A DNA stretch of 64,000 bases from a phage. Position 1 is the first letter of the stretch. Every line of letters begins with the position of its first letter. The notes under the pieces are model-generated. The model did not search any database. It was not told the DNA's origin and saw nothing but the letters and a program-made list of their open reading frames with translations. Position numbers and translations under genes: made by a program. The stretch lies in NCBI GenBank assembly GCA_025677605.1, contig GCA_025677605.1_4110.1; one strand, 5' to 3'. This document shows, in pieces, positions 41 to 27,651 of this stretch.

Positions 41-3000
41 ATGTACGAAAACTTCCTACAAAGTGTTCGTTATACATATGATCATTTGGGTGTTGAAACT
101 GAAATTTCTGGATTGTACTACTATAACGTAGTTGGTAAAGATAATGAACTACACCTTAAGACCGATTGGGTTCGTTCTAAGGAAGATTCAAAGCAATTCG
201 TTAAACAAACGCCACAAATCGAACACACTGATATGTATCGTGTATTCAATACCGTATTCGAAATGGAAAACTTTAAAAATCCATTAGAAGGTATGTATGC
301 ATATGTTACTGAAGTGGATCGTACCTATCAATATTACAAAGAAGAACGTCAAACCTATATGGATTGGCATGTAATTAGTGGTGAAGGTATTCAAAGTGAA
401 CGTTTCAATCGCACATTTGAATTAGCCCAGAAAATTATTGATGGTAAGAGTACTGAAATCATTGAAATTCAAGTTGATGGTGTGGATGTAACCGATTATA
501 CACGTCATGTATATAATAACAAGGTTCAAAGCATCACTTTAGGTGAAGATGTAGCTCTTAAAGATGAATCAGTGATTCAAATTAGAACATACAGCAGTAC
601 TGAAGTACCAAATAAAGAGTTGGGTGCATATGAAATCCCAATCAACTTACAAAATAACCCATACAACGATAATATTCTTTATATCAACCAAAGTAATTTT
701 ACATTACATTTTAAAGATATCATTCAAAAGAATATCACCAGTGGTTCCGTTGATGATTTCAACGACTACGAAGATCGTTTGTCTAAAGGTTTAGTGGATA
801 ACTCCGTTGGTACTAAGATTATTCAAAACGAAGCATCAATGCTACCGTTAATGGCACATTCTGCAAATGAAGATATTGACCTATTTGAATCTGTATTGTT
901 TATGCAATCCGAATATTTCCGTTTCGTAAACAAGTTCAATACACAAATGATCCGTTTGTACAATGAGAACCCAGCAAACTTCTTAGCTAATAATGCTTCT
1001 AATATTGTTGATGAAATTCTAACAATTATTAATATGGGTCATGATAATACTTTCCCATTCTATTATGATAACGTAGCAAGTACTTCTGGCTTCATTCGTG
1101 CGTTTGTACCACCAACTCCACAGTTTTTGGGTATTTTGAAAGCACACGTTCCAGAAAAAGCAACATTTTTGAATGCTGGTAGTAAGCAAAGCTGTTATAA
1201 CATCAGTCATACAGGTGCAATCACTAAAGCATACCGTGTAATAAACGGTGTTGATAAAATGGATGACGTTATATATGAGTTAGAAAATAGAATTTTCAAT
1301 AGTATTGATGTTATTTTCAAAGATGAAGATTACCAACCTAAGCTAGATGCTTCTGATCTTTTCCCAACTCCGTATTACAGAGATACAGAGTATAATGACG
1401 AAGAGAAAAAGAACTTACTACTACGTGGTTATATTAATTTCATCGCAACCAATGGTATCAGTAACAGTTCACATGATTATGATCCAAATAACTGGATGAC
1501 TTGGAACTATACTGGAACACATTATATGGTTAATGGTCAACAAACACAAATAGCAGCCCGTGGTTCATGGCGAGCAATCTACACTGACCAATTTGGTACA
1601 TATCGCCCAGCAACCCATCCGTGGGAAATGTTTGGTTTCTCCCAACGTCCAGTTTGGTGGAACCAGGAATATGAACCTACCGCAGTTCAAGTTGGCGAAC
1701 GTGATGGTGATGTTGTTTATGTATATGAGGCATTAGTTATCAACGAACAAGGTAACATGGTTCCTAGTGGGTTATGGGACGTTGGTAACGAGAAAGGTGA
1801 TAGCTCAACGGGTACTATCTTGTTTGGTGCACGTAAAGGTCAATATGACAAGTACAAACGTTTTGGTACACAACCATTTAAGATCACTAAAACAGGCAAG
1901 CAGACAGCATCTGGTGTTGATATTTGCGTCATTGAGTACATTGCTCCTGAAGTTTTAGGTCTTGTATATGGTAGTCTAAATCATCGTGCTGAACCGTGGA
2001 CTTATGGTGATATGGGTGATATGGAATTCACTTATATGAACACAGCAATGTTTGCATATGATGAATTATTGATGTTATTCAAAGCTAAACCTGCACAGTT
2101 CACAAACTATTTCTGGGATACCCGAAATAATACATTAAAAACTGTATCTGGTAATGAACCACAGTTTTTATATGGTGATACTCGTTTACGTTTGAACTTT
2201 AATAGTGATACAATCGTACATGGTGAGAATAGTACTCGCGTTATTGGTTATCAAATGATTGTTAGTGATTATTTGATGTATCAAAACAAAAATATTACAA
2301 CTAAGTACGGTGAAATTGTTCGTTCTTCTCATATTAATGTGGGTCATAAACTAGGTGGATTCACTAAAGCTGACCAATTAACATTTACATCAGAAGCAAC
2401 TGGTCTAATTTCACAAGAAAACCAATCTATCGGTTTAGTTCGTTCTAATAATATTAGAAATGAGCAAATGAGTGCAATTAAAATTACTTGGACTGGTAGT
2501 GCTTACCAAATTGATGGTTATGATTTAGTTTCTGCAACATTCAATTATAAATTGCCTGTTAAAAACGGTCATAAAGTATCTTTGAAAGTTGATAATCGTA
2601 ATGTTGTTCATTATAATGAGTGGAAAAATGATGCATCCATTCCTTACGGAACTTTGATGAATACCTTCCAGGAAGTTTACACATTTATTTGTGGTTATGG
2701 TGAGTATCTAAAGCAACATGGTTGGATTTTTGAAGAAGTTGATGAATCTGGTATCCAACAGGACTGGAATACAATTGCAAAAGACTTTTTAATCTGGAGT
2801 CAACAACAATTGAGTACTGGTGAATTCATTTCTTGTACCCCATCAGCAATTAATGCTAAATTTGGTACAGATTTTGGTTCAGTTCAGTCAATTGCACAAA
2901 ATAGTGGTGGTGTTTGGTCATTATTAGATGATTCAAACCAAGGTATACGTCAATTTGAGATTGAAACATCTCGTATTGGTAACATATTCACGGTAAGAAC

Positions 3001-6000
3001 TACTGAAGAATCAAATAAACGCATGGCACTTATTCGTTTAAGTATCAGTTCTTATGAACATGCTGTTATTTTTGATGATCAGACTATTTTCGGTGATTAT
3101 ATCTATGAACCAACCTATGGTGCAGTTCAAGAATTGATTAAATTGTATGGATATATCACTGGTTCATGGTCTGGACGTTTACAAGCTCCTGGATTTATCA
3201 TCCTAGAAGCTGGGACATTACCATCATTTGAAACTTTGGTGTCTAATTTCCAACATTATTATGATAATGAAACCCCAGTTAGTGATGTTCAATTAAATGA
3301 ACTTTCAAACCACTTAATTGGCTATCAGTCTCGTGATTACTTACAACGTATGATCACTAATGAGCCTGGTCGAATTGATTTCTATAAAGGTTTTATTCAT
3401 GATAAAGGCACTAACCAAGTACTAGAAAAAGTATTACGTGTATCTAAATCATATAATACTGATGAGTATAAAGCATTACAAGAATGGGCATTCCGTGTTG
3501 GTTCTTATGGTAACATTGATGGTGTTAAAAATCTTCAATTTAAACTAATTAATAATGAGTTTAAACAACAACCACAAATGATTACGTTCGACCGTTATTC
3601 CGATAAGGTTGAATCTGAGAATGAAATTGTATATTATGGTGAAATTGGTGAAGATTCACGCTGGATTAGTCGTCCAAAAGGTAAATTCTCATTCCCTATG
3701 CGTAATGGGAGAAGTGAGAATATCCAATTACCTAATATTGGACCAGTAACCCTAGATGAAATTGATTATACCACATTAAATTACGAAACTGCAAATCAAG
3801 ACCGCATTAGTTATATGAATAATTCTGGTAAAATCCCAACATCTGTTTGGATGTTCCAAGATATCAATAACGAATGGAATGTGTATGATTTAGTAGATAC
3901 TGGTATTACAATGGTTTCTATTACACCAATTGAAAGTGAAGATCCATATGCTGAGCAATATTGTAAAGTACTATTGTCTGATGATATCCCACTCAATGAT
4001 GGTGATTATTATTATTTTGTTGATGAAACAAACTTTATGCCTGATGCCCTACGTGATGAATGCCAATACTACACTTCTGGACTAGATCCAAAAGTTATGG
4101 TAGTGCCATTTGACACTTCCATTACTATTGACTTTTCAACAGTAGAATCAGCACCACGTTTGTATCGTTATGTTAGTAGATTTAGTACTCAACAAGAACG
4201 CGATGAATATATTGCTAAAAAATATAGTTACAGTGCACCTGAAAGCACTTTGTTTGACCGTCCTACTACGTATGATGAAAGAACAAACATTACTGCATTG
4301 TATTTGAATGTGTTTGACCCAATTAACGGTGTTATTCCTGGGGTTGCAATGCAAGATGTTGATTTCATCTCTCCAGTGGACCCAGCACAGTATAGCAGTA
4401 ACGGTGAACTATTACAAGCATGGGGTGCTGAAAAGGTAGGTAAAGTGTGGTGGAACACTAGCACTGCATTCTATCTGGATTATACCCGTCCAATCTTTGA
4501 TGAGGATGGTAACGTTGATGTAAAAGCAACTAATGAATATAAGCGTTATAATTGGGGTAAATTATTACCACACAGTGTTATTGATGTTCTAGAATGGGTT
4601 AGTTCACCAGTAGAACCATACAACTGGGAAAAATATTGTGCAGAACAAGCCAATAAAAATAAAAACAATACTATGTATCTCCCAAGTGGGATTGCAATGG
4701 ATGAGAACTACAGTTCATCTATGGAATATGATCCAATCACTGATACATATGTAGTTCGTTATTATTTCTGGGTTCGTAATACCATTTATGTTCCACCAAT
4801 GACTACTCGTAGTAAGTCTTGTACTGATATTGCACGTATTATTCAAGATCCAACACAATTGAATGTTCCTTGGTTTGCACCTATTAATGAAAATAGTTTC
4901 ATTCTAAGTAATATGCAATTTGAAGTTAATGATGATACAAGCATTTTGACAATTTCATATAGAAATGACAATATCGAAGTACTGAAGCATGATCAATATC
5001 AACTTTGTAAAGAAGGTGATAGTTATGACTTTAACCCAGATATTTGGAATTCACTATGGAACTCACTAATTGGTCAAGAAACTACTTCAACTGGTGTTGT
5101 AAATGAAATAATTTATCCTAAAGTTGAAACTGGTTTAGGTTCTAATAAAACTTGGTTCCAGAATGTCATTGAAGCTCGTCGTGCGTTTGTTGAAAGTGCA
5201 AATAACTTTTACCGTTCACAGAACATCACAACTAACAGTGTTGTTATGAATGATGTGTTTAATGTGAAAACATTAAAAATGAACCCAAATGATATTACAT
5301 TCCGTGTTCTATCATTTAACAATGAATTGGTAATTGCACCAGAAGATAACCGCTTTAAAGAGAATGATGCAGTATTTGTAAGTTCCATCGGAACTCTACC
5401 AGCACCATTATCTTCTAGTTCAGTATATTTTGTTCACATTGATCCAAATGGATACATTCAATTGATGAACAGCCCAAGTACAGTTGGTAGTACTGTTACA
5501 ATCACTCTAGAAAATAGAGGTGAAGGTCAACACAAGATGATTAAACAAGCTGACTTCATAGAATCACTTGGTACATCTTTGGATATGACCCAGTACTGGA
5601 ATCTGGCTGATTGGTACGATACTGGATACGATAGCAACACTGAATATACACAAGAAGTTAGTTTAGATGACGCAAACACTAAAAATTACCAAATTGGTGA
5701 TATTATCCGTGTAACTGATAGTGATGGTGTTTGGACATTATACATCAAGACTGCATCTCGTAATAATATATACTGGAAAGCTATTGGACGTGAGAATAGT
5801 ACAGTTGAATTGAATTCAATGTTATATTCTGGGTACAATGTTTACAATGATGATGGTTCTTTGAATTCTCATGAGGTTAACGTTCGTAATGCGTTAGCGT
5901 TGTTGAAAAATTCATTCAACTTATATCAAAGTAATATTGTTTTTGATATGGTTAAGTACGTACACACTGAACAAAGTGTTGTTGACTGGGTATTCAAAAC

Positions 6001-8800
6001 CTCATATATCTATATTGTAGGTTTAGAACAATCTCTCGTACAAAACTACTCAAATGACAACTTGATTAATCAAATTGTTGAGTACTTCGAAGAAGTTAAA
6101 CCATACAGAACCAAAATCCGTTCTCAAATAGAACAGAAAACTTCTGATGATGATTTGATTAATGGTATCAGTAATGACCTTGACCCAGATGGCTATATTT
6201 TAGTTGATGGTGTGTGGGTTAAGACTGAAAAAGACATTTGGGATTTAGAATATGCACAATTTAATGACGTAACCCAACGTTGGGAAAAGATTGGTTCACT
6301 ACCAAGTGACTTTATCACACCTAACAGACGATTCCAAGAAATCGACGTTATTATGCATTATGATAATATTCAATGTGACCCGTATGATAGTAATTATACA
6401 ATTGATGAGTTGAAATCAACCAATAGTAAGTATCAATCTAATGCTTCGGATATAGGAAATGATTATGAGTTACAGAGATATGTTTATACATTCCCTGAAT
6501 ATGATAATAATACCTTAATTTCACAGATTGGTATTGAAATGACTACCAAATATTCAGATTTGGATATTAGTAATGGTGTCATTAAAGGAATTGATGCATG
6601 GTATAAAGCCCATTCAACTGATATTGCAATGACTGACCAATTTACTGCTGATTTGGAGCAGGTAACTGCTGATACAAACAACAGTAACATTTTAGAAGAC
6701 GTTAAGAAATATATTCAATACAATACATTGGCAACTCGTGTGAAAATGTTTAAGAATATATCTGATGACATGGTTTCTAATGAGATTGGTTGTCCATTTA
6801 AGGGTACGAACTATAATGATAATCCTAATACTCGCCTACCTTTTGGGTTCAGTGCAAGTAGTGATTACAACTATGGTTATTTTGAGATTAGTATTGAACT
6901 ATATGAAAAATATGTCGATATGATCAAGAAAAATCACCCTGAGTTTACTAATGAAGACCAAGTTCGTAATATACTAGAGATAGAATATGGTGTTTATTGC
7001 TACAAGTATGATACCACATTAAATGACCGTTATTATTCTGATACCGTTCATGTGTTATCTGCAATGCGACAAACATTTAATAAGAATATTCTAGATCATT
7101 ATTATGTTGCTAGAGAAATCTTAAGTAATCGTGCAGTTGATAAGTATGCTTTTGTTATGATGCCAAGGAAATATGTGTATGTTGTGAATGCGGCAGGTGA
7201 ATATCTACCGATTCCTGAAAGTTACAGCATATCTGATTTCATGGAAGACTTATTCATAACAACCGGAGAATCAGTTGTATTGGCTGAAATTGATTTAAAT
7301 GATTTACCACAAGACCAGAATAATCCAATGTATTCTGCATATGTTGAAGTACTGGAAAGTATCAATACTGCAAAATATTTCAATGATATGAATGCATTCG
7401 ATAACTTGGCATTGGAATCACAAACCAAATCCATTAAATGGGAAGTTAAAGATAGTGAGATTGATCCTTATATCATCGACATTTCTGAACTAAACCCATC
7501 AGGAAGAACAATGGCACAATTACGTTTCACTGTTGATGGTTACGGTTTCGATGAAGTTGCTCAAGAGCAATTAAAAGACACAAGTAGATTCCAGATTGAG
7601 GGTATGATCGTACAAAACCCTTACAATATGTCAGAAGCAGTTGTAAGTATTCCATCATATGATATTGTCATTGAGAATATGGGTAAAGATGTGTTCAAAG
7701 AATCTGAAAAATACTTCTTCCCAATTTCAGAAATTAAAACAATTACTGAAATCAAAGTTCACGATGAAGGTTTGAAAGATGGTGATAAGGTTATGATTTT
7801 CACGCCAGATGGTGAAGATTATGTACGATTCCAAGACGGTAACTGGGTAACTATATTAAGTGCTAGTAAAATCCAATCCTCTAAAAAACCAAAACTATAC
7901 ACAGTACGTGTATTGGGTAATGGTAACGTAGAGTTGGTTGATAGTAATGGTGTAGTGTTAATGTTTGATAGTATAACTAAGCGTGAAAGTAATGAGCGTT
8001 TTTATACATTATCAATGAACTTAGTTAGAATCCGCACTTTCCAAGACCCTGAGTTTGATGACAATGGACTTAAACTATATGAAAATAATCGTCATTACAG
8101 TATACATGCATTGAACTATGAAGTATTCTATGACGAAACATTATATGGTGGTAAATTCAATGATGGTATCACACCTGATGAAATTGATTTGTGGTTAGTT
8201 TCCAATGAGATTTTTGAAGTTGATGGTATTACAATTGATAATGGTTACAATCAGCCAATCTCTGGTAAAGGTGTCCTGGGTGAACTAGTACGAGCTAAAA
8301 TGACTGATGGTATTGAAATCACTGTATTTGAATACGATGTTGATGTTATTCAACCAGTACTAAGTTATGATCGCGTGTGGCAGTATGCACAACCTGTGGT
8401 CAATAACACGTTCATCAAAGAAGTAGGATGTAGTGTAATTAACATTACAACCGTTGAAGATGAGGCAATCACTTATGTTGCTAAACCTCGTTCAATAAGC
8501 CCATATATCATTACTGATTCAGTACTGTCAGGTGCTGCGGCACAGAATGATGATATTATTGTGGTTGGATATGAGAAGGTTCAGGTAAGAAACACTGACC
8601 GTCTATTACGTGGTGTCATGTATAGTGCGGAACATAATTTTACTAAAGGAACGTCTTATAGCTTTAATGGATTGAACTTGGGGAGCATTGATAAGTTTAC
8701 TCAATATCAAAACTTCTATCCACCAATTCCATTAGATACATTCAGAAATGGATTGTCAATTACTGGAACTGATATCGAAAATCTATTGAATATTCAATAA
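41..8800 (+). CDS. Giant protein (2919 aa), function unknown; possibly virion-associated
   Basis: Single uninterrupted 8.76-kb ORF; overlapping antisense ORFs are short. No catalytic motif recognised by eye. Followed by a bidirectional terminator. Confidence 0.85.
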   Translation: MYENFLQSVRYTYDHLGVETEISGLYYYNVVGKDNELHLKTDWVRSKEDSKQFVKQTPQIEHTDMYRVFNTVFEMENFKNPLEGMYAYVTEVDRTYQYYKEERQTYMDWHVISGEGIQSERFNRTFELAQKIIDGKSTEIIEIQVDGVDVTDYTRHVYNNKVQSITLGEDVALKDESVIQIRTYSSTEVPNKELGAYEIPINLQNNPYNDNILYINQSNFTLHFKDIIQKNITSGSVDDFNDYEDRLSKGLVDNSVGTKIIQNEASMLPLMAHSANEDIDLFESVLFMQSEYFRFVNKFNTQMIRLYNENPANFLANNASNIVDEILTIINMGHDNTFPFYYDNVASTSGFIRAFVPPTPQFLGILKAHVPEKATFLNAGSKQSCYNISHTGAITKAYRVINGVDKMDDVIYELENRIFNSIDVIFKDEDYQPKLDASDLFPTPYYRDTEYNDEEKKNLLLRGYINFIATNGISNSSHDYDPNNWMTWNYTGTHYMVNGQQTQIAARGSWRAIYTDQFGTYRPATHPWEMFGFSQRPVWWNQEYEPTAVQVGERDGDVVYVYEALVINEQGNMVPSGLWDVGNEKGDSSTGTILFGARKGQYDKYKRFGTQPFKITKTGKQTASGVDICVIEYIAPEVLGLVYGSLNHRAEPWTYGDMGDMEFTYMNTAMFAYDELLMLFKAKPAQFTNYFWDTRNNTLKTVSGNEPQFLYGDTRLRLNFNSDTIVHGENSTRVIGYQMIVSDYLMYQNKNITTKYGEIVRSSHINVGHKLGGFTKADQLTFTSEATGLISQENQSIGLVRSNNIRNEQMSAIKITWTGSAYQIDGYDLVSATFNYKLPVKNGHKVSLKVDNRNVVHYNEWKNDASIPYGTLMNTFQEVYTFICGYGEYLKQHGWIFEEVDESGIQQDWNTIAKDFLIWSQQQLSTGEFISCTPSAINAKFGTDFGSVQSIAQNSGGVWSLLDDSNQGIRQFEIETSRIGNIFTVRTTEESNKRMALIRLSISSYEHAVIFDDQTIFGDYIYEPTYGAVQELIKLYGYITGSWSGRLQAPGFIILEAGTLPSFETLVSNFQHYYDNETPVSDVQLNELSNHLIGYQSRDYLQRMITNEPGRIDFYKGFIHDKGTNQVLEKVLRVSKSYNTDEYKALQEWAFRVGSYGNIDGVKNLQFKLINNEFKQQPQMITFDRYSDKVESENEIVYYGEIGEDSRWISRPKGKFSFPMRNGRSENIQLPNIGPVTLDEIDYTTLNYETANQDRISYMNNSGKIPTSVWMFQDINNEWNVYDLVDTGITMVSITPIESEDPYAEQYCKVLLSDDIPLNDGDYYYFVDETNFMPDALRDECQYYTSGLDPKVMVVPFDTSITIDFSTVESAPRLYRYVSRFSTQQERDEYIAKKYSYSAPESTLFDRPTTYDERTNITALYLNVFDPINGVIPGVAMQDVDFISPVDPAQYSSNGELLQAWGAEKVGKVWWNTSTAFYLDYTRPIFDEDGNVDVKATNEYKRYNWGKLLPHSVIDVLEWVSSPVEPYNWEKYCAEQANKNKNNTMYLPSGIAMDENYSSSMEYDPITDTYVVRYYFWVRNTIYVPPMTTRSKSCTDIARIIQDPTQLNVPWFAPINENSFILSNMQFEVNDDTSILTISYRNDNIEVLKHDQYQLCKEGDSYDFNPDIWNSLWNSLIGQETTSTGVVNEIIYPKVETGLGSNKTWFQNVIEARRAFVESANNFYRSQNITTNSVVMNDVFNVKTLKMNPNDITFRVLSFNNELVIAPEDNRFKENDAVFVSSIGTLPAPLSSSSVYFVHIDPNGYIQLMNSPSTVGSTVTITLENRGEGQHKMIKQADFIESLGTSLDMTQYWNLADWYDTGYDSNTEYTQEVSLDDANTKNYQIGDIIRVTDSDGVWTLYIKTASRNNIYWKAIGRENSTVELNSMLYSGYNVYNDDGSLNSHEVNVRNALALLKNSFNLYQSNIVFDMVKYVHTEQSVVDWVFKTSYIYIVGLEQSLVQNYSNDNLINQIVEYFEEVKPYRTKIRSQIEQKTSDDDLINGISNDLDPDGYILVDGVWVKTEKDIWDLEYAQFNDVTQRWEKIGSLPSDFITPNRRFQEIDVIMHYDNIQCDPYDSNYTIDELKSTNSKYQSNASDIGNDYELQRYVYTFPEYDNNTLISQIGIEMTTKYSDLDISNGVIKGIDAWYKAHSTDIAMTDQFTADLEQVTADTNNSNILEDVKKYIQYNTLATRVKMFKNISDDMVSNEIGCPFKGTNYNDNPNTRLPFGFSASSDYNYGYFEISIELYEKYVDMIKKNHPEFTNEDQVRNILEIEYGVYCYKYDTTLNDRYYSDTVHVLSAMRQTFNKNILDHYYVAREILSNRAVDKYAFVMMPRKYVYVVNAAGEYLPIPESYSISDFMEDLFITTGESVVLAEIDLNDLPQDQNNPMYSAYVEVLESINTAKYFNDMNAFDNLALESQTKSIKWEVKDSEIDPYIIDISELNPSGRTMAQLRFTVDGYGFDEVAQEQLKDTSRFQIEGMIVQNPYNMSEAVVSIPSYDIVIENMGKDVFKESEKYFFPISEIKTITEIKVHDEGLKDGDKVMIFTPDGEDYVRFQDGNWVTILSASKIQSSKKPKLYTVRVLGNGNVELVDSNGVVLMFDSITKRESNERFYTLSMNLVRIRTFQDPEFDDNGLKLYENNRHYSIHALNYEVFYDETLYGGKFNDGITPDEIDLWLVSNEIFEVDGITIDNGYNQPISGKGVLGELVRAKMTDGIEITVFEYDVDVIQPVLSYDRVWQYAQPVVNNTFIKEVGCSVINITTVEDEAITYVAKPRSISPYIITDSVLSGAAAQNDDIIVVGYEKVQVRNTDRLLRGVMYSAEHNFTKGTSYSFNGLNLGSIDKFTQYQNFYPPIPLDTFRNGLSITGTDIENLLNIQ

Positions 8801-18046: not shown

Positions 18047-20218
18047 ATGGCAGTTTTTTCTAACTTTGAAGGGACAATGAAAACCAAGTTTATACTTGGT
18101 AAAAATGGGGCATTAATTAATTATGCTAACAATTCCCTGTCTATTACAGATAGTTTCGGAAGCATCTTATTGCCCGTACAAGTTGGTGAACCGATTAATG
18201 ATAATTCAGCGATTACTGCAAAGTATCTCGCTGACCACCCAACTGTATTATTTGGGAATGAAATCCCAGATAATAGTCTTGGTAAGGATAATTATACTTA
18301 TTTGCAATTAGACCAAGAAAGTGGTGGTATCCTAGATATTTTCGCTAAGAAGAATGGTGCATGGATAAAATCAATGTATGTTAATACTAAAGTATTATCC
18401 AGTACTAATGGTTCTGATTATATTGGTTTGGTTTCTGGTGGAACACTACAACAAGCTTTGTATTATATAACACCTGAAGAATTTGGTGCTATCGGTGATG
18501 GTATTGCTGATGATACTGACGCAGTTCAAGCTTGTGCTGATTACGCTAAAGCTCATGATATCCAAATACAAGGTAAAGGTGTTTATCGTTTATCCAAAGC
18601 AATATATTTTGAAAATATTGAATGGTATGGTGGAACATTAACTGGCACTGGTAAAACAATGATATCAGCAACCAACTGTAAAATACAAGGGGCAAACATT
18701 GCTCGTAGTTATATTCAGTTTTCTGGTGGTAATGGTAAGTTCTATTTCAACCGCTTTTATGGTACAACATTCACCTGTGCATTCTTTATGCGTGATTTAA
18801 CTTCAGAAGGTATTCTCGACTTTTGTTTCAATGAAATGTACGATGTTAACTTTGGTGTTCTACAGCAAGGTGGTAGTGGTGAAATAGTAAAATATGCTCG
18901 CTATGCATATAACCATATTCACGATATCTATGGTGATGGTATTGAATTAAACGTAGTTTCAAGACACTTCACTGATGGTCTAATCATTGAAGGAAACCAT
19001 ATTGAAAACGTTGATGGTACTAACGCTCCAATCCCACTATCAAACTGGGGTATCGGTATCGGTGTTGCTGGTAAAGGTCCATATGGAGTTGATATTCCAG
19101 ATAGTCAATATGTTAAAAACTTCACTATTGCTCGAAATAGAGTATATAACTGTCGTCAATGTATACACGTTGAAGTCGGTAAGAATTTTAATATAATAGA
19201 TAATGAGACATTTCCATCAACCACAATATCAACTGGAACTGGCTTAACTGCCGCAGGTATCATCACTTATGGATGTCAAGATTTTGTTGTTGACGGATTA
19301 ACTGGTCGCTATTTGGATGATCCAGCAACTGCACCAACAAACAGAATGATTAAATTTACATGGGGTGTTAACCCTGCTGATGCAACACACCAATATGCAT
19401 GGTATGCAGGTCCACCAAAAGATTTTAAAGTTCAAAACGTTTTCATTCCTGAATCTAGTATAGAAATATACACATCCGGTGCAAACGCATGGACTAACGA
19501 AACTGATATGCACAATATAACTTGTGAAAAATTATATTGGCGTGGATTACCATCATCATCAAAATTCAGTAAAATTTATACAAAAAATTTAGATGTAATT
19601 GGTCAATATCAAGATGGTGAAGGTGGTGGCGTTTATACCAGAACTAATTATACATATACCAGTTGGATTGGTAATATAGTTCAAGATGACGCTAATATAT
19701 CAAATTATTCATTCTCACGAATGTATGTTGATAGAATAGATCAATCTGGTAATAACTTCACGGTAACAACTGAAATAGATGGAACTGGTCACCGTGGCCC
19801 AGTACTGATACCAGTCACGGAGCAATATTATCTACCTTATGATGAATTCCCAGGTGGTAGATATTTCCCCAAAGGAACAATTTTACACAAACAATCTGGG
19901 GGTAAATATGTAGTAACAGTAGCTGGTGCATTCGTAGGAAAATATGAACAGCTTAAAGCAGCAGTAGTTGGTGCTAAAACTATTAGAACACATAACACTG
20001 CATGGGGTACAAACCAATATGCTAAAGCAGCAGGTACAAGAATTGTAATTCCTGGTGCTGGTGAAAATGGAACTGATCTCCACACTCATATAACACGAGC
20101 TACATACGTGGTCAACTCGGTATTTTGCATTGATATAGCAGATGAAATAAAAACTGCTTTCCCTGATGGGACTCCATTGTTAGCCGAATCCCCAATTACA
20201 TACATTACACTTCCATAA
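18047..20218 (+). CDS. Tailspike with pectate-lyase-fold polysaccharide depolymerase domain
   Basis: FGAIGDGIADDTDAVQACADYA motif typical of beta-helix depolymerase tailspikes; N-terminal ~60 aa shared with the next gene. Confidence 0.85.
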   Translation: MAVFSNFEGTMKTKFILGKNGALINYANNSLSITDSFGSILLPVQVGEPINDNSAITAKYLADHPTVLFGNEIPDNSLGKDNYTYLQLDQESGGILDIFAKKNGAWIKSMYVNTKVLSSTNGSDYIGLVSGGTLQQALYYITPEEFGAIGDGIADDTDAVQACADYAKAHDIQIQGKGVYRLSKAIYFENIEWYGGTLTGTGKTMISATNCKIQGANIARSYIQFSGGNGKFYFNRFYGTTFTCAFFMRDLTSEGILDFCFNEMYDVNFGVLQQGGSGEIVKYARYAYNHIHDIYGDGIELNVVSRHFTDGLIIEGNHIENVDGTNAPIPLSNWGIGIGVAGKGPYGVDIPDSQYVKNFTIARNRVYNCRQCIHVEVGKNFNIIDNETFPSTTISTGTGLTAAGIITYGCQDFVVDGLTGRYLDDPATAPTNRMIKFTWGVNPADATHQYAWYAGPPKDFKVQNVFIPESSIEIYTSGANAWTNETDMHNITCEKLYWRGLPSSSKFSKIYTKNLDVIGQYQDGEGGGVYTRTNYTYTSWIGNIVQDDANISNYSFSRMYVDRIDQSGNNFTVTTEIDGTGHRGPVLIPVTEQYYLPYDEFPGGRYFPKGTILHKQSGGKYVVTVAGAFVGKYEQLKAAVVGAKTIRTHNTAWGTNQYAKAAGTRIVIPGAGENGTDLHTHITRATYVVNSVFCIDIADEIKTAFPDGTPLLAESPITYITLP

Positions 20219-21145: not shown

Positions 21146-21177
21146 GCCAGGTATGATGTCTTAGTGCCTGGCTTTTT
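21146..21177 (+). terminator. Putative intrinsic terminator
   Basis: GCCAGG...CCTGGC stem with a long loop, then TTTTT. Confidence 0.45.
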
Positions 21178-21252
21178 CATATATACAAATAAATAATTAC
21201 ATATTAACACAGTTAATAAGTATTTTAATTTTACCCAAATGGAGGGAAATGA

Positions 21253-24200
21253 ATGTACTCGATAAAAACAGATCTAGCAGTAACTGGTAATACTAATGTT
21301 GGTAAAGAATTATCAGTTAAAGGTAATGCGGTCTTCGATAAAAACGTAACCATTAAGGGGACCGTTAGTTTCGCTGATGCTACCTTCACTGCAATTACAG
21401 TAGATCAAGCAACAATCAACACAACACTCGATGTTACAGGCAAAGCGTCACTTAAGGGTGGAATGGATGTACTTGGCAATACAGTTATTGGTAATACTAC
21501 TGCTGGTTCCGATACAGCAACTATTAATTCCAATGCTACTTTTAATGGCACTTCTACTTTTGCCAAAGATATTACACAAACATCAGGAAAAGCAATTTTT
21601 CAAGATACCACCACTTCTGCATTAGAAGTTAATGGTACAACAACATTAAATGGTAACCTCACTGCTGCGGCAGCAACCACTGCAAGCTTTGATAAATTAA
21701 CTGCTAATGAAGCAACCATTGCAACTGTATCAGCAACTGATATTACTGCAACTGGTGCAACCGTTGAGAATCTAACTGTAACTGGTAAATTAGATGGTGA
21801 TTTCACATTAGGGGATGTTAATACCGATAATTTAGTTGTTGAAAAACTATCTACATTAAAAGGTGCTGTAACCCTAGAATCAAACATCATTGGTACTAAT
21901 ACTGTAGCAAACCTAAAAGCTGTATCTTTGGGTTCTAATGCAGCGGATTCGACTGCACGCCTAGGCTTTGCATATACTGCTCCTGGTTTACGCCCAACTG
22001 TAATTCTACAAAACGAAGTACAGTCCGAGCTAATGACACCAGCAAATCTAACAGTACTTAAAACTGCTACATTTGGTGATGTATCAGCAGCAACCAATGG
22101 TATTACCGCAAAAGGTTTGAACCTATTTGATTACCTAACACTTTCTGGTAACTCAATACAAGATCCAACCACACCAATTCTACGTGTAACTAAAGGTAAA
22201 ACACAATTAACTGACCTACAAGTTGATGGAACTACTAATATTACTGGTAAAACTACTGTTGGTGATTTGGATATTACTGGAACACTATCAGGTAACTTTG
22301 TACTAAGTGATATTACTGCGGATAATTTAGTTGTTGAAAAACTAACTACACTAAAAGGTGCATTAAACCTAGAATCTAATATTGTTGGTTCAACTGCGAA
22401 TGCTAATTTAAAATCTGTCACTTTAGGTGGAAACGTAGCAGACACGAATGCTAAAGTTAACTTTACATATACTGCTCCTGGTTTACGTCCAACTGTAATT
22501 CTACAAAACGAAGTACAGTCCGAATTAATGACCCCAGCAAATCTAACAGTGCTGAAAACTGCTACATTTGGTGATGTATCTGCATCTACCTACGGTATTA
22601 CAGCAAAAGGTTTGAACCTATTTGATTATTTGAAAATAACTGGTAATGCGGTACAAGATCCAAATACATTAACTCTAGATGTGGATGGTAAGGCTCAATT
22701 CAAAGACGTTAATTTCACTGGTACAGTTACTGGTTTTGTTCCTGACATTTCTGGTCAAGATATTACACCTAAAGATGTAACTGCTTCTGGTAATATTAGT
22801 GGTGTTAATCTAGATGCTTCTGGTACACTAACAGTTGATGGGGATTCCGTTCTAAAAGGCACAACTATAACTGATTTGACTGTTACTGGAACTACAACTG
22901 GTATTACACTAGCTGGTCAAGACATTACTCCTAAAGATGTAACTGCATCTGGTAATGTTAAAGGTGTTGACGTAACTGCATCTGGAAACCTAACAGTTGA
23001 CGGTACTACCACATTGGTTGGTAACACGGTAGTTGATGGTTTATTTGAAGTTGTTGGTCAAACAACCACTGTTAAAGATTTGAACGTTACTGGTACACTA
23101 TCTGGTGCTGCAATTAAAGCAAACGTTGATGGTCTAGACATTCTACCTAATTCTGTAACCACAACTGAAGAAGTTGCAGTGGGGACTAATCTAAGTGTTG
23201 GTGGAAACGCACTCTTTAGTGGCTTGAAAGTTGAAGTTACTGGTAAAGTTACTGGTGTTGGTTCTGATGCATTAGAAACTGGTTCAATTGAATCTGACGG
23301 TACTATCACTGCCCCAAATATCACAGCAACTACTAAAGTGACCGCAGCTTCCGCACAAATTACCGGAACCGGAACTGGTCTAAGTGTAGATCATAATGCA
23401 TCAGTTGGTGGTGATTTAAATGTTACTGGAACTTTAACGGCTGGTGTTATTGACCTAAGTGCGGCTGATGTAACTGTTAAAACACTTGATGTATCTGAAA
23501 GTGCACATGTAGGTGGAAACCTAACTGTTGATGGTACTGTAGATTTAAGTGCAGCAGATGTAAGTGTTAAATCTTTAACTAGTGCTGGTCCTGTGATTAG
23601 TAATGATGCTACTGGAACTAACATTCTACCAAAATTACAAAGTACTGATATTACTACAACTAACAGTACAACTGGTACAGCAACAGTAACTACAGCAAAC
23701 ATTTCTACATTAAATGTTACTGGTGAAAGTACATTGGCTGCTGTTTCTGCTGTTTCTGTAACTACTCCTTCTATTGTTAATACCGATGGTATTAATTTAG
23801 AAAATGATACAGTTGCACATGGTGACCTAACTGTTAAAGGTACATTTACACCTGAAGGTGGATTAGATTTAAGCCCAGTTGATATCAGTTCTAAATCATT
23901 AACAACAACTGAAGGTGCAACCATTGGTGGAAGCTTAACTGTTGATGGTGCAATTAATGCTGCTGCGGCAGATCTAACTGTTAAATCACTAACTTCTTCT
24001 GGTGTTATTACTGTTACTGAAAATACTGAACCAAGTATTCTACCAAAACTAACAAGTACTGAAGCAACCGCTGGTAAATTGAATGTTACTGGTGATGCAA
24101 CAGTCGGTGGTAAAGCGACCGTTTCTGGTGCACTTGAAGTTACTGGTGCTTCAACATTTGGTAACGCAGTAACTGTAAACGTCGGTGGTATTACTGCTAA

Positions 24201-26796
24201 AGGTGGCTTGACTGTTGCTTCTGGAAACTTGAAAGTTGCTGCTGCGGCAGTGGTTGATGGTTCAGTAAGTGCTGGTTCATACACAAGTGCTGGAGATAAA
24301 ATAACACTAGCTAAACCAACAGATGTTACTGGTGATTTGCACGTTGAAGGTGCTTTCACTGCAACTTCCGTTGATTTTAGTACAACTGATTTAACTGTTA
24401 AATCACTACAAGTTGATAATGACGTTACTATCGATGGTAACTTGACTATCACAAATGCTGATTTGGAAACTAACTCATTAGCAAGTACTACAAGTACTAC
24501 TGTTGGTACTGACCTAATTCTAACTACTGGTACAATTACTGGTGCTCCAACAATTTCTGGTGCAACTACACTAAGTTCAACCCTACATACTGTAGGTGCT
24601 GCAACTTTTGATGGTACTGTTGATGTTGGTGGTAAAATTACTTCTAAATCAATCCAAGTAAGTGCTACTGGTGTTGGTGTAGCTGTTGATAATGATGCAA
24701 CTGTTGGTGGTTATTTGACAATTGGTGAAACATTAGGTGTTACTGGACTAAGTACTCTGTCTGGTGGGGTTGATGCAGGTTCTGCATTAATCAAAACTAC
24801 TGGTGAAGTTCAATCAGCAACTCTACAAACTTCTGGTAAAGCAACACTAGCAAGTGTTGATGTTTCAGGTGATGCAGTTGTTACTGGTGACCTAACTGTT
24901 AAAGGTGCATTTACACCTGAAGGTAGCCTAAACTTAGGTTCTGCTGTTCTAAACGTTGAAGGTGTTGATGCAAGTGCTAACTTAACTGCACTCGGTTCTG
25001 TAACTGCTGGTACTACACTAACTGTTACTGGTGTTTCAACTCTAAATGGTGGTACTAACACTACTACTCTTTCAACAAGTGGTAAAGCTACATTAAGTAG
25101 TGCGGAAGTTACTGGTGCTCTAAGTGCTGGTGGTGCTTTGGCTGTTACTGGTACTACAAATCTAACTGGAAAACTAACCGCTGGTGAAGCTGCTCTCAGT
25201 TCACTAACAGTTTCTGGTGATGTTACCATTAATGGAACACTAAACCCTGGAACATTGGATCTATCTACTACTCCAGTTGATGCGAAAAGCTTGAAATCTA
25301 GAGAAACACTAGAAGTTACTGGTCTAAGCACTCTAACTGGTGGTTTGGCTGTTAGTGCAAATACCGCAATCACTGCTGCTGGTGACATTACTGGTACTAC
25401 AATTACCACAACTGGTAAAGGTACATTTGGTAGTGCAGCGGTAACTACTGGTTTGACTGTTGGTGGTGCTTTGGTTGTTAATGGTGCATCCGTGAACATC
25501 TCTGATGCTTCTACTGTGACTATGCCTAAAGCTGATATTTCTGCGAAAGGTATTATCATCGGTCCTAAAGTTAGTTCAAGACCGGAAACTATCCAATTTG
25601 TTGGTGATACTTATATTGGTAGTAACCTATTTGTTGCTGGTAATATTAACGGTTCAGTAGATTTGGCTGGTCAGGATATTTCCCTGAACTCATTAACTTC
25701 TAATACCACAATTCACGCAGTTGAGGATATTACTACTGATGAAGATATGCACGCACGTGCTGCAACATTCGGTGCACAAGGTTCAACAGCTAACAGCCTA
25801 ACTGTTAATGGTAACGCAGTAACTACTGGCGACTTTACTGTTAGTGGTAAGATTATTGGTACACTGGACCAATCTGCAAGTGCAGTCGAAGTTAAATCTC
25901 TAACTTCTACAACCTTTATCGCTGCTGGTACAACCCTAACAGTTGGTTCAACAATCACTGCTGAAGGTTTGAGTACTTTGAAAGGTGGTATTGCAACTAA
26001 TGGTGCTACAATCAACGCTGGTGATGGTGCAATCACTACAACTGGTGATGTGTCTGGTGCAAACGTTAGTGCGTCTGGTGCAGTAACTACTGCAACTATT
26101 ACAACTTCTGGCCTAGCAACTATGGCAAGTGCTAAGATTAACACTACTCTAGCAGTTACTGGTGCAACTACACTATCTGATGTTGTTACTATCGGTAAGA
26201 AACTAACTGTTAGTACTGGTGGTATCGAAATCACTGCGGGTGGCTTCAATGTAGTTGCGGGTGGTGCAGCAATTACTGGTGCTACTAACCTTAAAGGTGC
26301 TGTAACACTAGGTTCTGCGTCTGCTGATGCAATCACAGTTACTGGTACATCTTCATTTGCTGAAAATGCAACATTTGCTAAAGATGTGACTATTGAAGGC
26401 ACACTACATACAGATATTGCTGATTTAGTAACTGAAAGTGTAACTACTAAAAAGTATGCTGTTACACCTGCTGCTAAAGTACAGGCATCTGTTGCTGCTC
26501 CAAGTGAAGGAACATGGTCACCTGATGGTGAGTCTAATGTGTACTATATTACACTAGACCAAGCATCAACTACACTAGGTCCAATTAACGGATTGATTGG
26601 AAGTGGTAAGGCTGGTTCTTACTATATCTACGTACAACAAGATGCAACTGGTGGACGTGAACTTATCACTGATGGTACTTATGCAGTAGTAGGTGGTGAG
26701 ATTAACAAAACACAAAATACAGTTAGTATCATTCAGTTGATTTATGATGGATACAGCCCAGTAGTAGATATGTTTATTGCACAACGTACTGCTTAA
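21253..26796 (+). CDS. Long tail fiber (1847 aa), highly repetitive T/G/A/V-rich
   Basis: Recurrent LTV(D/T)G and TVKSL motifs, internal tandem duplications; GGAGGG RBS. Antisense ORFs here are compositional artefacts. Confidence 0.85.
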   Translation: MYSIKTDLAVTGNTNVGKELSVKGNAVFDKNVTIKGTVSFADATFTAITVDQATINTTLDVTGKASLKGGMDVLGNTVIGNTTAGSDTATINSNATFNGTSTFAKDITQTSGKAIFQDTTTSALEVNGTTTLNGNLTAAAATTASFDKLTANEATIATVSATDITATGATVENLTVTGKLDGDFTLGDVNTDNLVVEKLSTLKGAVTLESNIIGTNTVANLKAVSLGSNAADSTARLGFAYTAPGLRPTVILQNEVQSELMTPANLTVLKTATFGDVSAATNGITAKGLNLFDYLTLSGNSIQDPTTPILRVTKGKTQLTDLQVDGTTNITGKTTVGDLDITGTLSGNFVLSDITADNLVVEKLTTLKGALNLESNIVGSTANANLKSVTLGGNVADTNAKVNFTYTAPGLRPTVILQNEVQSELMTPANLTVLKTATFGDVSASTYGITAKGLNLFDYLKITGNAVQDPNTLTLDVDGKAQFKDVNFTGTVTGFVPDISGQDITPKDVTASGNISGVNLDASGTLTVDGDSVLKGTTITDLTVTGTTTGITLAGQDITPKDVTASGNVKGVDVTASGNLTVDGTTTLVGNTVVDGLFEVVGQTTTVKDLNVTGTLSGAAIKANVDGLDILPNSVTTTEEVAVGTNLSVGGNALFSGLKVEVTGKVTGVGSDALETGSIESDGTITAPNITATTKVTAASAQITGTGTGLSVDHNASVGGDLNVTGTLTAGVIDLSAADVTVKTLDVSESAHVGGNLTVDGTVDLSAADVSVKSLTSAGPVISNDATGTNILPKLQSTDITTTNSTTGTATVTTANISTLNVTGESTLAAVSAVSVTTPSIVNTDGINLENDTVAHGDLTVKGTFTPEGGLDLSPVDISSKSLTTTEGATIGGSLTVDGAINAAAADLTVKSLTSSGVITVTENTEPSILPKLTSTEATAGKLNVTGDATVGGKATVSGALEVTGASTFGNAVTVNVGGITAKGGLTVASGNLKVAAAAVVDGSVSAGSYTSAGDKITLAKPTDVTGDLHVEGAFTATSVDFSTTDLTVKSLQVDNDVTIDGNLTITNADLETNSLASTTSTTVGTDLILTTGTITGAPTISGATTLSSTLHTVGAATFDGTVDVGGKITSKSIQVSATGVGVAVDNDATVGGYLTIGETLGVTGLSTLSGGVDAGSALIKTTGEVQSATLQTSGKATLASVDVSGDAVVTGDLTVKGAFTPEGSLNLGSAVLNVEGVDASANLTALGSVTAGTTLTVTGVSTLNGGTNTTTLSTSGKATLSSAEVTGALSAGGALAVTGTTNLTGKLTAGEAALSSLTVSGDVTINGTLNPGTLDLSTTPVDAKSLKSRETLEVTGLSTLTGGLAVSANTAITAAGDITGTTITTTGKGTFGSAAVTTGLTVGGALVVNGASVNISDASTVTMPKADISAKGIIIGPKVSSRPETIQFVGDTYIGSNLFVAGNINGSVDLAGQDISLNSLTSNTTIHAVEDITTDEDMHARAATFGAQGSTANSLTVNGNAVTTGDFTVSGKIIGTLDQSASAVEVKSLTSTTFIAAGTTLTVGSTITAEGLSTLKGGIATNGATINAGDGAITTTGDVSGANVSASGAVTTATITTSGLATMASAKINTTLAVTGATTLSDVVTIGKKLTVSTGGIEITAGGFNVVAGGAAITGATNLKGAVTLGSASADAITVTGTSSFAENATFAKDVTIEGTLHTDIADLVTESVTTKKYAVTPAAKVQASVAAPSEGTWSPDGESNVYYITLDQASTTLGPINGLIGSGKAGSYYIYVQQDATGGRELITDGTYAVVGGEINKTQNTVSIIQLIYDGYSPVVDMFIAQRTA
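21784..22700 (+). repeat. In-frame tandem duplication (period 495 bp) inside the fiber gene
   Basis: 21979-22133 and 22474-22628 are near-identical, both encoding APGLRPTVILQNEVQSELMTPANLTVLKTATFGDVS; a further 165-bp repeat encodes GQDITPKDVTASGN at about 22753 and 22918. Confidence 0.85.
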
Positions 26797-26804
26797 TATA
26801 AATG

Positions 26805-26830
26805 GTGCGGGGTTTTCCCCGCACTGTATT
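26805..26830 (+). terminator. Putative terminator or stable 5' hairpin
   Basis: Perfect hairpin GTGCGGGG-TTTT-CCCCGCAC after the fiber stop; only a weak T-tract follows. Confidence 0.5.
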
Positions 26831-26862
26831 GTAAATAATTTAATTTTAAATGAGGAAATATT

Positions 26863-27651
26863 ATGGCTCAATTTACATATGTGAGTGGTAGTTCAGCGGC
26901 AGATTACAAACTAGGTAAAATAATTTCTAATCCTAGAGGTGTTAAAGGTCAATCACGTAGTCCACAACCACCCAATGATCCTAGTGGTGAGTATTTTTAT
27001 ACATACGACGATGTTCGTCCATTCTATGGTATTAAACTAAATCCAAATGCAGAAATACCAAAAGCTGCTGATGAAATTCGCAAGAGAGAAGGCTTCTGGT
27101 GGTTAGAATATGTATCTGTTGGCGATAGAAATTCAAAGGGTGAATACCTTGAATATCGCAAAATTGAAGGTGATGCAGTAGTTACATTTAACGAAACCGA
27201 AGTAGCACCATATGCAGCATTAACCGCAGTAAAAACACAAACCTACATTGATATGGATTTGGCTGATGTTAAAGCTGATTTGAAGCAAAGAACCGCATAT
27301 GAACGAGATAATTTAATTAATAGTGGTTATCATTATAAAAATGCTGACGGAACAGTTGATGTAACATTCCCTAGTGATGTTAATGGTCGTCAGATGTTAA
27401 ACAACTATTATACACAAGCGATTAATGGTTCCCAAACTATTAATATCTATCTAGATAGTGGTGAGATTGTAACAGTTGATGGTGATGAGATGGTTGAAAT
27501 TTTCAATGGTCTATTGGCACAAATCGACGGATACTTTAATGACGCAATTGCACAACAAACTGCAATTGATGCAGCAACTACCATTTTTGATGCACAAAAA
27601 GCAGCAACTTTTGTATATCCAGATCAATCTAAGATCCCAGTACGTAATTAA
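26863..27651 (+). CDS. Hypothetical protein, possibly fiber-associated
   Basis: 262-aa ORF with GAGGA RBS between two fiber genes. Confidence 0.7.
   Translation: MAQFTYVSGSSAADYKLGKIISNPRGVKGQSRSPQPPNDPSGEYFYTYDDVRPFYGIKLNPNAEIPKAADEIRKREGFWWLEYVSVGDRNSKGEYLEYRKIEGDAVVTFNETEVAPYAALTAVKTQTYIDMDLADVKADLKQRTAYERDNLINSGYHYKNADGTVDVTFPSDVNGRQMLNNYYTQAINGSQTINIYLDSGEIVTVDGDEMVEIFNGLLAQIDGYFNDAIAQQTAIDAATTIFDAQKAATFVYPDQSKIPVRN

Follow-up and report, generated by a model that had tools for sequence, protein, structure and literature searches.

Does a long internal repeat in a phage fibre gene testify to a young and still unstable duplication, or is it an old part of the protein? The question is raised by positions 21253 to 26796 of a 64,000-nucleotide (nt) stretch of phage DNA (NCBI GenBank assembly GCA_025677605.1, contig GCA_025677605.1_4110.1), here called the window. 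The initial annotation described this open reading frame (ORF) as a fibre gene of degenerate T/G/A/V-rich units with a recent in-frame duplication, proposed that ongoing recombination could vary fibre length or specificity, and regarded the repeat as an assembly hazard. In this study, we found that the locus is an ordinary phage tail fibre gene with ancient internal modules and a lineage-specific conversion tract. To the reading as a whole, i.e., an Asteriusvirus long fibre with an ancient module pair, a conversion of the module core confined to one lineage and strain variation located in a cassette of fibre tip and chaperone, we assign a probability of about 80%. Direct observations on the sequences compared are the homology, the architecture, the age of the module pair, the signal of conversion and the location of the variation.

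21253-26796, plus strand: long tail-fibre gene, an ORF with ATG start encoding 1847 amino acids (aa)

Sequence comparison assigns the product to a jumbo myophage of the 121Q/A4 type (genus Asteriusvirus), a coliphage, as its long tail fibre. The gene shares 98.0% nt identity across 100% of its length with A4_569 of Escherichia phage A4, and further orthologues are 121Q gp571 and phAPEC6 gp256. The product matches PHROG 4549 ('tail fiber protein') with an E value of 1.2e-177; scans of the fibre against Pfam and NCBIfam matched no family. The gene order around the fibre is identical in A4, 121Q, Turkey5 and BF17, where the tail/baseplate block comprises a colanic-acid-degrading protein, a 300-aa structural protein, the fibre, a 262-aa protein, a 657-aa protein and, on the opposite strand, thymidylate synthase. 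Furthermore, the internal modules and the C terminus of the window fibre can be aligned with those of 121Q, Turkey5 and BF17. For the orthologue phAPEC6 gp256 (1841 aa), mass spectrometry of virions yielded 15 peptides of a tail fibre protein of 180.38 kDa (PMC7247149); presence in the virion is demonstrated for this orthologue only, and is expected for the window fibre by homology. The description as a fibre with degenerate repeats was borne out, as was the composition of the 1847-aa product, of which T (18.2%), G (11.9%), A (10.8%) and V (10.0%) together make up 51%. The protein contains no cysteine, and its glycines show a weak periodicity of 6 residues.

A protein identical to the window fibre is on record as HCQ0858466.1; the contig that encodes it, of 351,638 bp, was submitted under E. 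coli. Several near-complete phage contigs of ~350 kb with this fibre are filed as Escherichia coli assemblies (e.g., HCQ0858466.1 and MED6699528.1, the latter under 'E. coli O157'), and the phage lineage of the window occurs in bacterial whole-genome shotgun data. The alleles of the window, of A4 and of five further, independent assemblies form the set of seven on which the comparisons among isolates are based; besides HCQ0858466.1 and MED6699528.1, the entries with this fibre include EON7637230.1, EOR9074310.1 and Logan contigs.

The repeat at a spacing of 495 bp was confirmed, as was its in-frame nature, and consists of two tandem modules of 165 aa each.

21748-22242, plus strand: module A (A-type), aa 166-330, delimited by hmmsearch and alignment; its C-terminal flank (C-flank) groups with the A-types of 121Q, Turkey5 and BF17
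22243-22737, plus strand: module B (B-type), aa 331-495, with the one-residue deletion and the FTGTVTG end of B-types; its C-flank groups with the B-types

The two modules share 66% aa identity (tblastn E value of 5e-66), far beyond chance, and differ at ~27% of their nucleotides overall and at ~36% in their flanks. Tandem Repeats Finder reported only trivial repeats of 9 to 12 nt in the gene, the modules being too diverged for detection. Within the modules, the two 155-nt stretches that had been called almost identical are present but contain 12 mismatches (92.3% identity) and are better described as very similar. The best-scoring ungapped segment has the same identity over 168 nt (21966-22133 and 22461-22628), and the repeat family termed D6 extends over 222 nt at 86% identity (21966-22187 and 22461-22682). 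Each module begins with ~70 aa of shaft-like repeats, a character judged from weak partial matches of a hidden Markov model (HMM) along the shaft, and continues with a unique part of ~95 aa that is richer in proline and aromatic residues. The module is a domain family without a database entry or known fold, and it is rare: an exhaustive HMMER search found 11 cluster representatives among 1.84 billion proteins. With the double module, the profile of the module and the C terminus as queries, a word-indexed protein search returned 2, 1 and 0 matches, respectively; the family is barely covered by that index. A literature search turned up no paper that describes the structure of the modules or their conversion.

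With an HMM built from the window modules, a tandem pair was detected at the corresponding position, aa ~167-331 and 337-500, in 121Q gp571; the first fibre gene of Turkey5 and that of BF17 encode such a pair as well. Across these phages, the first copies form an A-type, with 71-82% aa identity to one another, and the last copies a B-type, with 69-79%, as opposed to ~60% between A and B. Copy A of the window carries the A-type C-terminal end (...VTKGKT...), and copy B carries the B-type end with the one-residue deletion and FTGTVTG. At the nt level, the C-flank of window copy A is 64-71% identical to the A-types versus 61% to its own neighbour B, and that of copy B is 58-65% identical to the B-types versus 51-57% to the A-types; both placements hold jointly in 94% of bootstraps. 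The divergence at synonymous sites (dS) between the flanks of the window copies is 0.79-1.08, which is saturated and equals the A-B divergence in other phages. Outside the genus, a profile search found a single module in phiTE, and genomes of Mimasvirus-, Eneladusvirus- and Vequintavirus-type phages mostly gave a single tblastn location, compared with two to five in Asteriusvirus (three in JP4/CRJP21, five in Turkey5/JNE01). Given the C-flank orthology, the A/B-specific indel, the saturated flank dS and the common two-module layout, the duplication is ancient and older than the split of the Asteriusvirus fibres compared.

The label 'recent' in the initial annotation can therefore not be maintained, with a flank dS of 0.8-1.1 and copies that are positionally orthologous to A and B in other phages. 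A recent duplication of the whole module, in which a newly doubled 495-bp segment diverged fast in its flanks and kept its core unchanged, would fit the direct junction of the window copies at aa 330/331, where relatives have a 5-aa linker, as well as their N-terminal flanks (N-flanks), which are 64% alike compared with 50-57% identity to any other phage's module. However, it would have to reach the flank dS of phages whose copies are clearly old, and to arrive at C-flank positional orthology (94% bootstrap) and at the A/B-specific indel that the copies share, in a group in which every related fibre compared has the two-module layout. We consider such a young origin very unlikely.

If the duplication is ancient, the high similarity of its central part calls for another explanation, which is provided by exchange between the copies.

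21966-22133, plus strand: conversion tract, module A copy, encoding ...FAYTAPGLRPTVILQNEVQSELMTPANLTVLKTATFGDVSA..GITAKGLNLFDY; dS of 0.28-0.36 versus 0.8-1.1 in the flanks
22461-22628, plus strand: conversion tract, module B copy, apparently overwritten with A-type sequence; nearer to the A-types in 94.5% of bootstraps
21826-21849, plus strand: second, small shared patch, encoding DNLVVEKL; exact match of 24 nt with 22321-22344

In this core (module codons 74-129), the A and B copies of the window are identical at 92% of all and 82% of third codon positions, whereas the A-B core pairs of 121Q, Turkey5 and BF17 reach 73-79% and 48-61%, respectively, and the window cores share 67-76% nt identity with any core of another phage. 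In 99.95% of bootstraps, no cross-phage pair was as similar as the two window cores. The window has a core dS of 0.28-0.36, compared with 0.97-1.33 in four other fibres, and the synonymous differences of core and flanks differ in a Fisher test (p = 0.0055). The tree of the core joins both window copies, while that of the C-flank sorts the copies by A/B type; this incongruence between tract and flank is a classic signature of gene conversion. The similarity of the cores thus points to lineage-specific intragenic gene conversion and not to the remnant of a young duplication. The bootstrap placement of the B core near the A-types suggests the direction A to B, i.e., A-type sequence would have overwritten the core of copy B.

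The same similarity might arise without any conversion if the core were simply the most constrained part of the module, under purifying selection that includes codon usage or RNA structure. Indeed, the core is the best conserved part at the protein level in all phages, its nt identity across phages (67-83%) is higher than that of the flanks, and megablast across phages detects the cores only. General constraint is nevertheless contradicted by the confinement of the dS drop to one lineage: 121Q, Turkey5 and BF17 are under the same comparison at A-B core dS values of 0.97-1.33 and third-position identities of 48-61%, against ~0.3 and 82% in the window. We therefore give constraint alone only a slim chance.

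According to the conversion model, A-type sequence would have replaced the best-conserved stretch of module B, 168 nt in length, in the lineage that gave rise to the window and A4. The older and smaller DNLVVEKL patch, which is derived in both window copies relative to all other phages, would likewise have been homogenised; this patch and the N-flank, which lacks a clear A/B signal, are consistent with older exchanges. Since the cores differ by 8% and frequent ongoing conversion would predict a higher identity, the main conversion was not very recent.

Traces of exchange are also visible between close relatives. Outside its C terminus, the fibre gene differs between the window and A4 at 26 positions, 10 of which lie in the module cores. 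Against an expectation of 1.1, this clustering has a Poisson P of 3e-7 when the region is selected post hoc, and P = 4e-4 when the 2 x 168 nt defined beforehand are used. Nine of these ten differences are at third codon positions, in eight one of the two phages has the base of the paralogous copy, and three lie within 13 nt. Among the seven alleles, four of six polymorphisms at positions that differ between A and B switch to the residue of the paralogue (binomial P ~0.006 at p = 0.15). These patterns suggest that micro-conversion between the copies continues, at a rate that is neither frequent nor with long tracts, since the cores are still 8% apart. Of the ongoing recombination claimed at first, past exchange between the copies was thus confirmed and continuing exchange is probable.

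The clustering of window/A4 differences in the cores would also fit an import, in which both cores came by homologous recombination from a third phage with modules homogenised beforehand, but it fits exchange with other alleles of the population equally well. Mosaicism elsewhere in the gene, namely, in the tip, lends some plausibility to an import. One imported tract would, however, have to span both cores and yet leave the N-flank of B and the C-flank of A lineage-typical, or else two imports would be needed; no donor was found among 50,697 phage records, and the conversion event would merely be relocated to another genome. An import of this kind seems to us as improbable as an explanation by constraint, and conversion within the gene remains the preferred reading.

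Beyond the modules, two further repeats were noted in the fibre.

22747-23070, plus strand: two 54-aa units starting with (I/L)(S/A)GQDITPKDVTASGN; the repeated part is 22751-22841 and 22913-23003
23368-24195: shaft super-repeat of ~138 aa (414 nt) with DLSxxDVxVKSL pairs and ILPK; aa ~720-800 versus ~858-938

The motif GQDITPKDVTASGN, which had been assigned to a 165-bp repeat, does occur twice (aa 501 and 555), but with a spacing of 162 bp (54 aa). The corresponding repeat family, D15, comprises 91 nt with 82% identity at the same spacing; the first ~33 codons of the units are repeated (78% nt identity, dS 0.48), and the other 21 codons are unrelated. Five related fibres have a single SGQDLTPxSV motif, the second GQD unit being confined to the lineage of the window and A4. 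The copies of the shaft super-repeat share ~50% aa identity across ~80 aa, with three units in 121Q and two in the window. Across the genus, fibres contain two or three modules, one or two GQD units and two or three shaft super-repeats, and fibre lengths in the group range from 1628 to 2120 aa. The proposal that repeats vary the length of the fibre therefore holds at the level of the genus but not at this locus within the lineage of the window: comparison among isolates showed that all seven alleles have two modules and a length of 1845 or 1847 aa. Unequal crossing-over at such tracts would be a likely source of the lineage-specific extra GQD unit and of a three-module paralogue found in Turkey5. 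This paralogue is a second long fibre gene directly downstream of the first, present in Turkey5 (L003, 13519-18486) and BF17 (L004, 13560-18486). The second fibre has 2120 aa in Turkey5, with three modules of which the first two are 85% identical, and ~1906 aa with two modules in BF17. A single long fibre gene is present in the window, in A4 and in 121Q.

The concern about assembly was not substantiated. The longest exact repeat in the fibre gene is 35 nt, none of its 20-mers recurs in the rest of the window, and the repeats are no hazard for reads of at least 100 nt. Repeats in fibre genes are a generic risk, and nothing specific was found that would point to a collapsed or expanded repeat at this locus. 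With copies that are ~27% apart overall and ~36% in the flanks, and with the same architecture in A4 and the five further assemblies, an assembly artefact has a next to negligible probability.

A further question is where the isolates differ.

26467-26742, plus strand: hypervariable tip, aa 1739-1830, with variable patches set in a conserved framework; at least four allele types in the seven assemblies
26863-27651, plus strand: gene for a 262-aa DUF4376 protein, probable tail-fibre chaperone; starts 67 nt past the fibre stop

The seven alleles vary above all in their C-terminal tip, with 39 variable columns per 100 aa versus 0-5.7 elsewhere, and we found no evidence that the modules vary specificity, as had been suggested. 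Between the window and A4, 91 of the 117 nt differences in the fibre gene fall within its last ~410 nt, and 31 of the 35 aa differences lie at aa 1740-1827. The downstream 262-aa protein, annotated merely as 'structural protein' in A4 and 121Q, varies together with the tip: 19 of its 22 aa differences between the window and A4 are located at aa 12-75 in the N-terminal part. The hypervariable tract between these two phages is sharply bounded at 26467-27090, with lesser but still raised divergence up to ~30500, and the genes upstream of the fibre show 0 and 1 aa differences.

The 262-aa protein matches Pfam PF14301 (DUF4376) at aa 136-240 (E value of 6.9e-6). DUF4376 is the C-terminal domain of the characterised fibre chaperones V22 gp27 and A5 gp9, which are encoded just downstream of the fibres and were demonstrated to be required for fibre maturation (PMC7289586, PMC10579305). 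By analogy with these proteins, the product of 26863-27651 is probably the cognate chaperone of the fibre. Positions ~26467-27090 are most likely a cassette of receptor-binding tip and cognate chaperone that is exchanged or diversified between isolates, where binding of the receptor by the tip is inferred from this pattern. Strain differences relevant to host recognition would accordingly be expected in the cassette and not in the modules. We also considered a diversity-generating retroelement as the source of tip variation and rejected it, since the substitution spectrum is not adenine-biased and no template repeat exists, as judged from the absence of gene 20-mers elsewhere in the window.

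The remaining parts of the fibre complete the following architecture.

21253-21747, plus strand: N-terminal 165 aa; β-helix-like repeats from the first residues; no variable columns in the seven alleles
23071-26319, plus strand: T/G/A/V-rich shaft with degenerate repeats (repeat families D8, D9, D13 and D17)
26320-26793, plus strand: C-terminal domain, aa 1690-1847, homologous to the C terminus of the phiTE fibre

From the N to the C terminus, the fibre is composed of a β-helix-like start, two tandem modules of 165 aa, G-x-D-I-x-P units, a shaft of ~1000 aa and a small C-terminal tip domain. A match of aa 54-140 to Bactofilin (PF04519; E value of 1.6e-4) scored 22.3 bits, below the Pfam cutoff of 27.9, and is only a resemblance in composition and periodicity. 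The only relative with a solved structure is the 793-aa fibre of phiTE, a Pectobacterium phage of the Vequintavirinae (chain g of PDB 9CUY/9MJN; E value of 1.6e-26), where we take chain g to be the phiTE long tail fibre on account of its sequence character. It aligns to aa 353-810 and 1693-1844 of the window fibre, and the C-terminal domain matches aa 650-792 of 9cuy_g with E values of 1.6e-10 (phmmer) and 1.9e-16 (profile search). Residues 1-170 of phiTE, the N-terminal helical 'rip-cord' attachment region, gave no alignment to the window fibre, the N terminus of which is β-repeat-like. The phiTE long tail fibre is described as a trimer of which residues 14-171 alone were modelled experimentally, and AlphaFold predicts an extended β-helix beyond them (PMC11972413). 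By analogy, the window fibre may also form a trimeric β-helix.

The label of A4_569 in its deposited annotation, 'long tail fiber proximal subunit', was also evaluated. Searches of Pfam, NCBIfam and PDB chains gave no similarity to T4 gp34, and the sole PDB-chain match at E <= 1 was the phiTE fibre. A proximal half-fibre of the T4 gp34 type was therefore rejected as a candidate; furthermore, genes for a hinge or a distal half-fibre (gp35-37-like) do not follow next downstream, where the DUF4376 gene is succeeded by the gene for the 657-aa protein, which matches PHROG 14293 only. Since there is no similarity to gp34, the label is unsupported and probably a misnomer. The window protein has the look of a whole fibre, equipped with a tip of its own and with a DUF4376 chaperone.

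Several points weigh against the reading proposed here. The cores of the two modules are still 8% different (dS ~0.3), and the N-flanks of the window lack clear A/B orthology, which leaves part of the module history ambiguous. The clustering test was applied to a region picked after seeing the data, and the nt-level evidence comes from two genomes only. The DUF4376 match, with 26.9 bits, narrowly exceeds the Pfam cutoff of 25, and PHROGs calls the family 'virion structural protein'. Finally, AlphaFold2 (AF2) models were unusable: a monomer of aa 131-520, based on an alignment of three sequences, reached a predicted local distance difference test score (pLDDT) of 42, and a single-sequence model of the C-terminal 160 aa reached a pLDDT of 35. 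Because of this, how the module folds, what it does and whether the fibre forms a trimeric β-helix are matters of inference. As a doubtful further idea, the module may serve as a docking or branch point, or as a hinge, on the proximal fibre of 'hairy' multi-fibre jumbo phages. The cores would then be alike through their fit to a common partner and not through neutral conversion, and the number of modules (one, two or three) would set the partners, such as tailspikes or secondary fibres, of each fibre.

The gene is bounded by potential regulatory elements on both sides.

21146-21178, plus strand: hairpin GCCAGG...CCTGGC with a T-run behind it, located past the upstream gene; read from the sequence, with a putative function
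26805-26824: perfect GC-rich palindromic hairpin GTGCGGGG TTTT CCCCGCAC, 9 nt past the fibre stop; putative terminator

The ATG at 21253 is preceded by an AT-rich spacer and a GGAGGG Shine-Dalgarno sequence. The hairpins on both sides suggest that the fibre gene is a transcription unit of its own; a scan for promoters and terminators showed no enrichment over shuffled sequence. On the minus strand, antisense ORFs of 353, 249, 229 and 165 aa lie between 21600 and 26871 inside the fibre gene, and one of the antisense frames contains no more than 22 stop-generating triplets over 5.5 kb. Antisense stops are few because the sense codons are mostly ACT, GGT, GTT, GCT and similar, and these ORFs are almost certainly composition artefacts.

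Two of the genes upstream were also inspected. Two genes ahead of the fibre, 18047-20218 (plus strand) encodes a 723-aa protein that matches PHROG 6117 ('colanic acid degradation') with an E value of 3e-229 and has tailspike-like N-terminal matches; it is probably a depolymerase tailspike. At the start of the window, a giant ORF of 2919 aa (41-8800, plus strand) matched PHROG 10938 ('virion structural protein'), with an alignment that covers positions 407-3324 of this family. Since the alignment starts at position 407, the gene probably begins before the window. In phAPEC6, a 382-kDa virion protein, gp245, is located in the same neighbourhood.

These results are of practical use for annotation and for phage engineering or therapy with Asteriusvirus coliphages. 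The internal duplication should not be taken as recent, unstable or an assembly error, and differences in host range between near-identical isolates should be sought in the ~620-nt cassette made up of fibre aa 1739-1830 and aa 12-75 of the chaperone. As a small and cleanly documented case, the module illustrates mosaic concerted evolution within a phage fibre gene.

Compared with known systems, A4_569, 121Q gp571 and phAPEC6 gp256 represent the same gene with a two-module layout and a similar length (1841-1847 aa). The fibre of A4 differs in its tip allele. The modules of 121Q are 49-54% identical to those of the window, which has an extra GQD unit and one shaft super-repeat fewer. The phiTE fibre likewise combines the module, in a single copy at aa 178-328, with G-x-D-I-x-P units, shaft repeats and the C-terminal domain, but it has one module instead of two and less than half the length. 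In Alteromonas phage V22 (gp26/gp27) and in A5 (gp8/gp9), the fibre gene is followed by a DUF4376 gene as in the window, and tip and chaperone are exchanged or varied together; these fibres are unrelated in sequence to that of the window and much shorter (369-462 aa). T4 gp34, from which the annotation label originates, is like the window fibre a long, repeat-rich fibre of a myophage. The fibre genes of T-even phages evolve via shuffling and duplication of short motifs, and duplication of a small gp37 domain reportedly expanded the host range of T4 (Tetart et al., J Mol Biol 1996).

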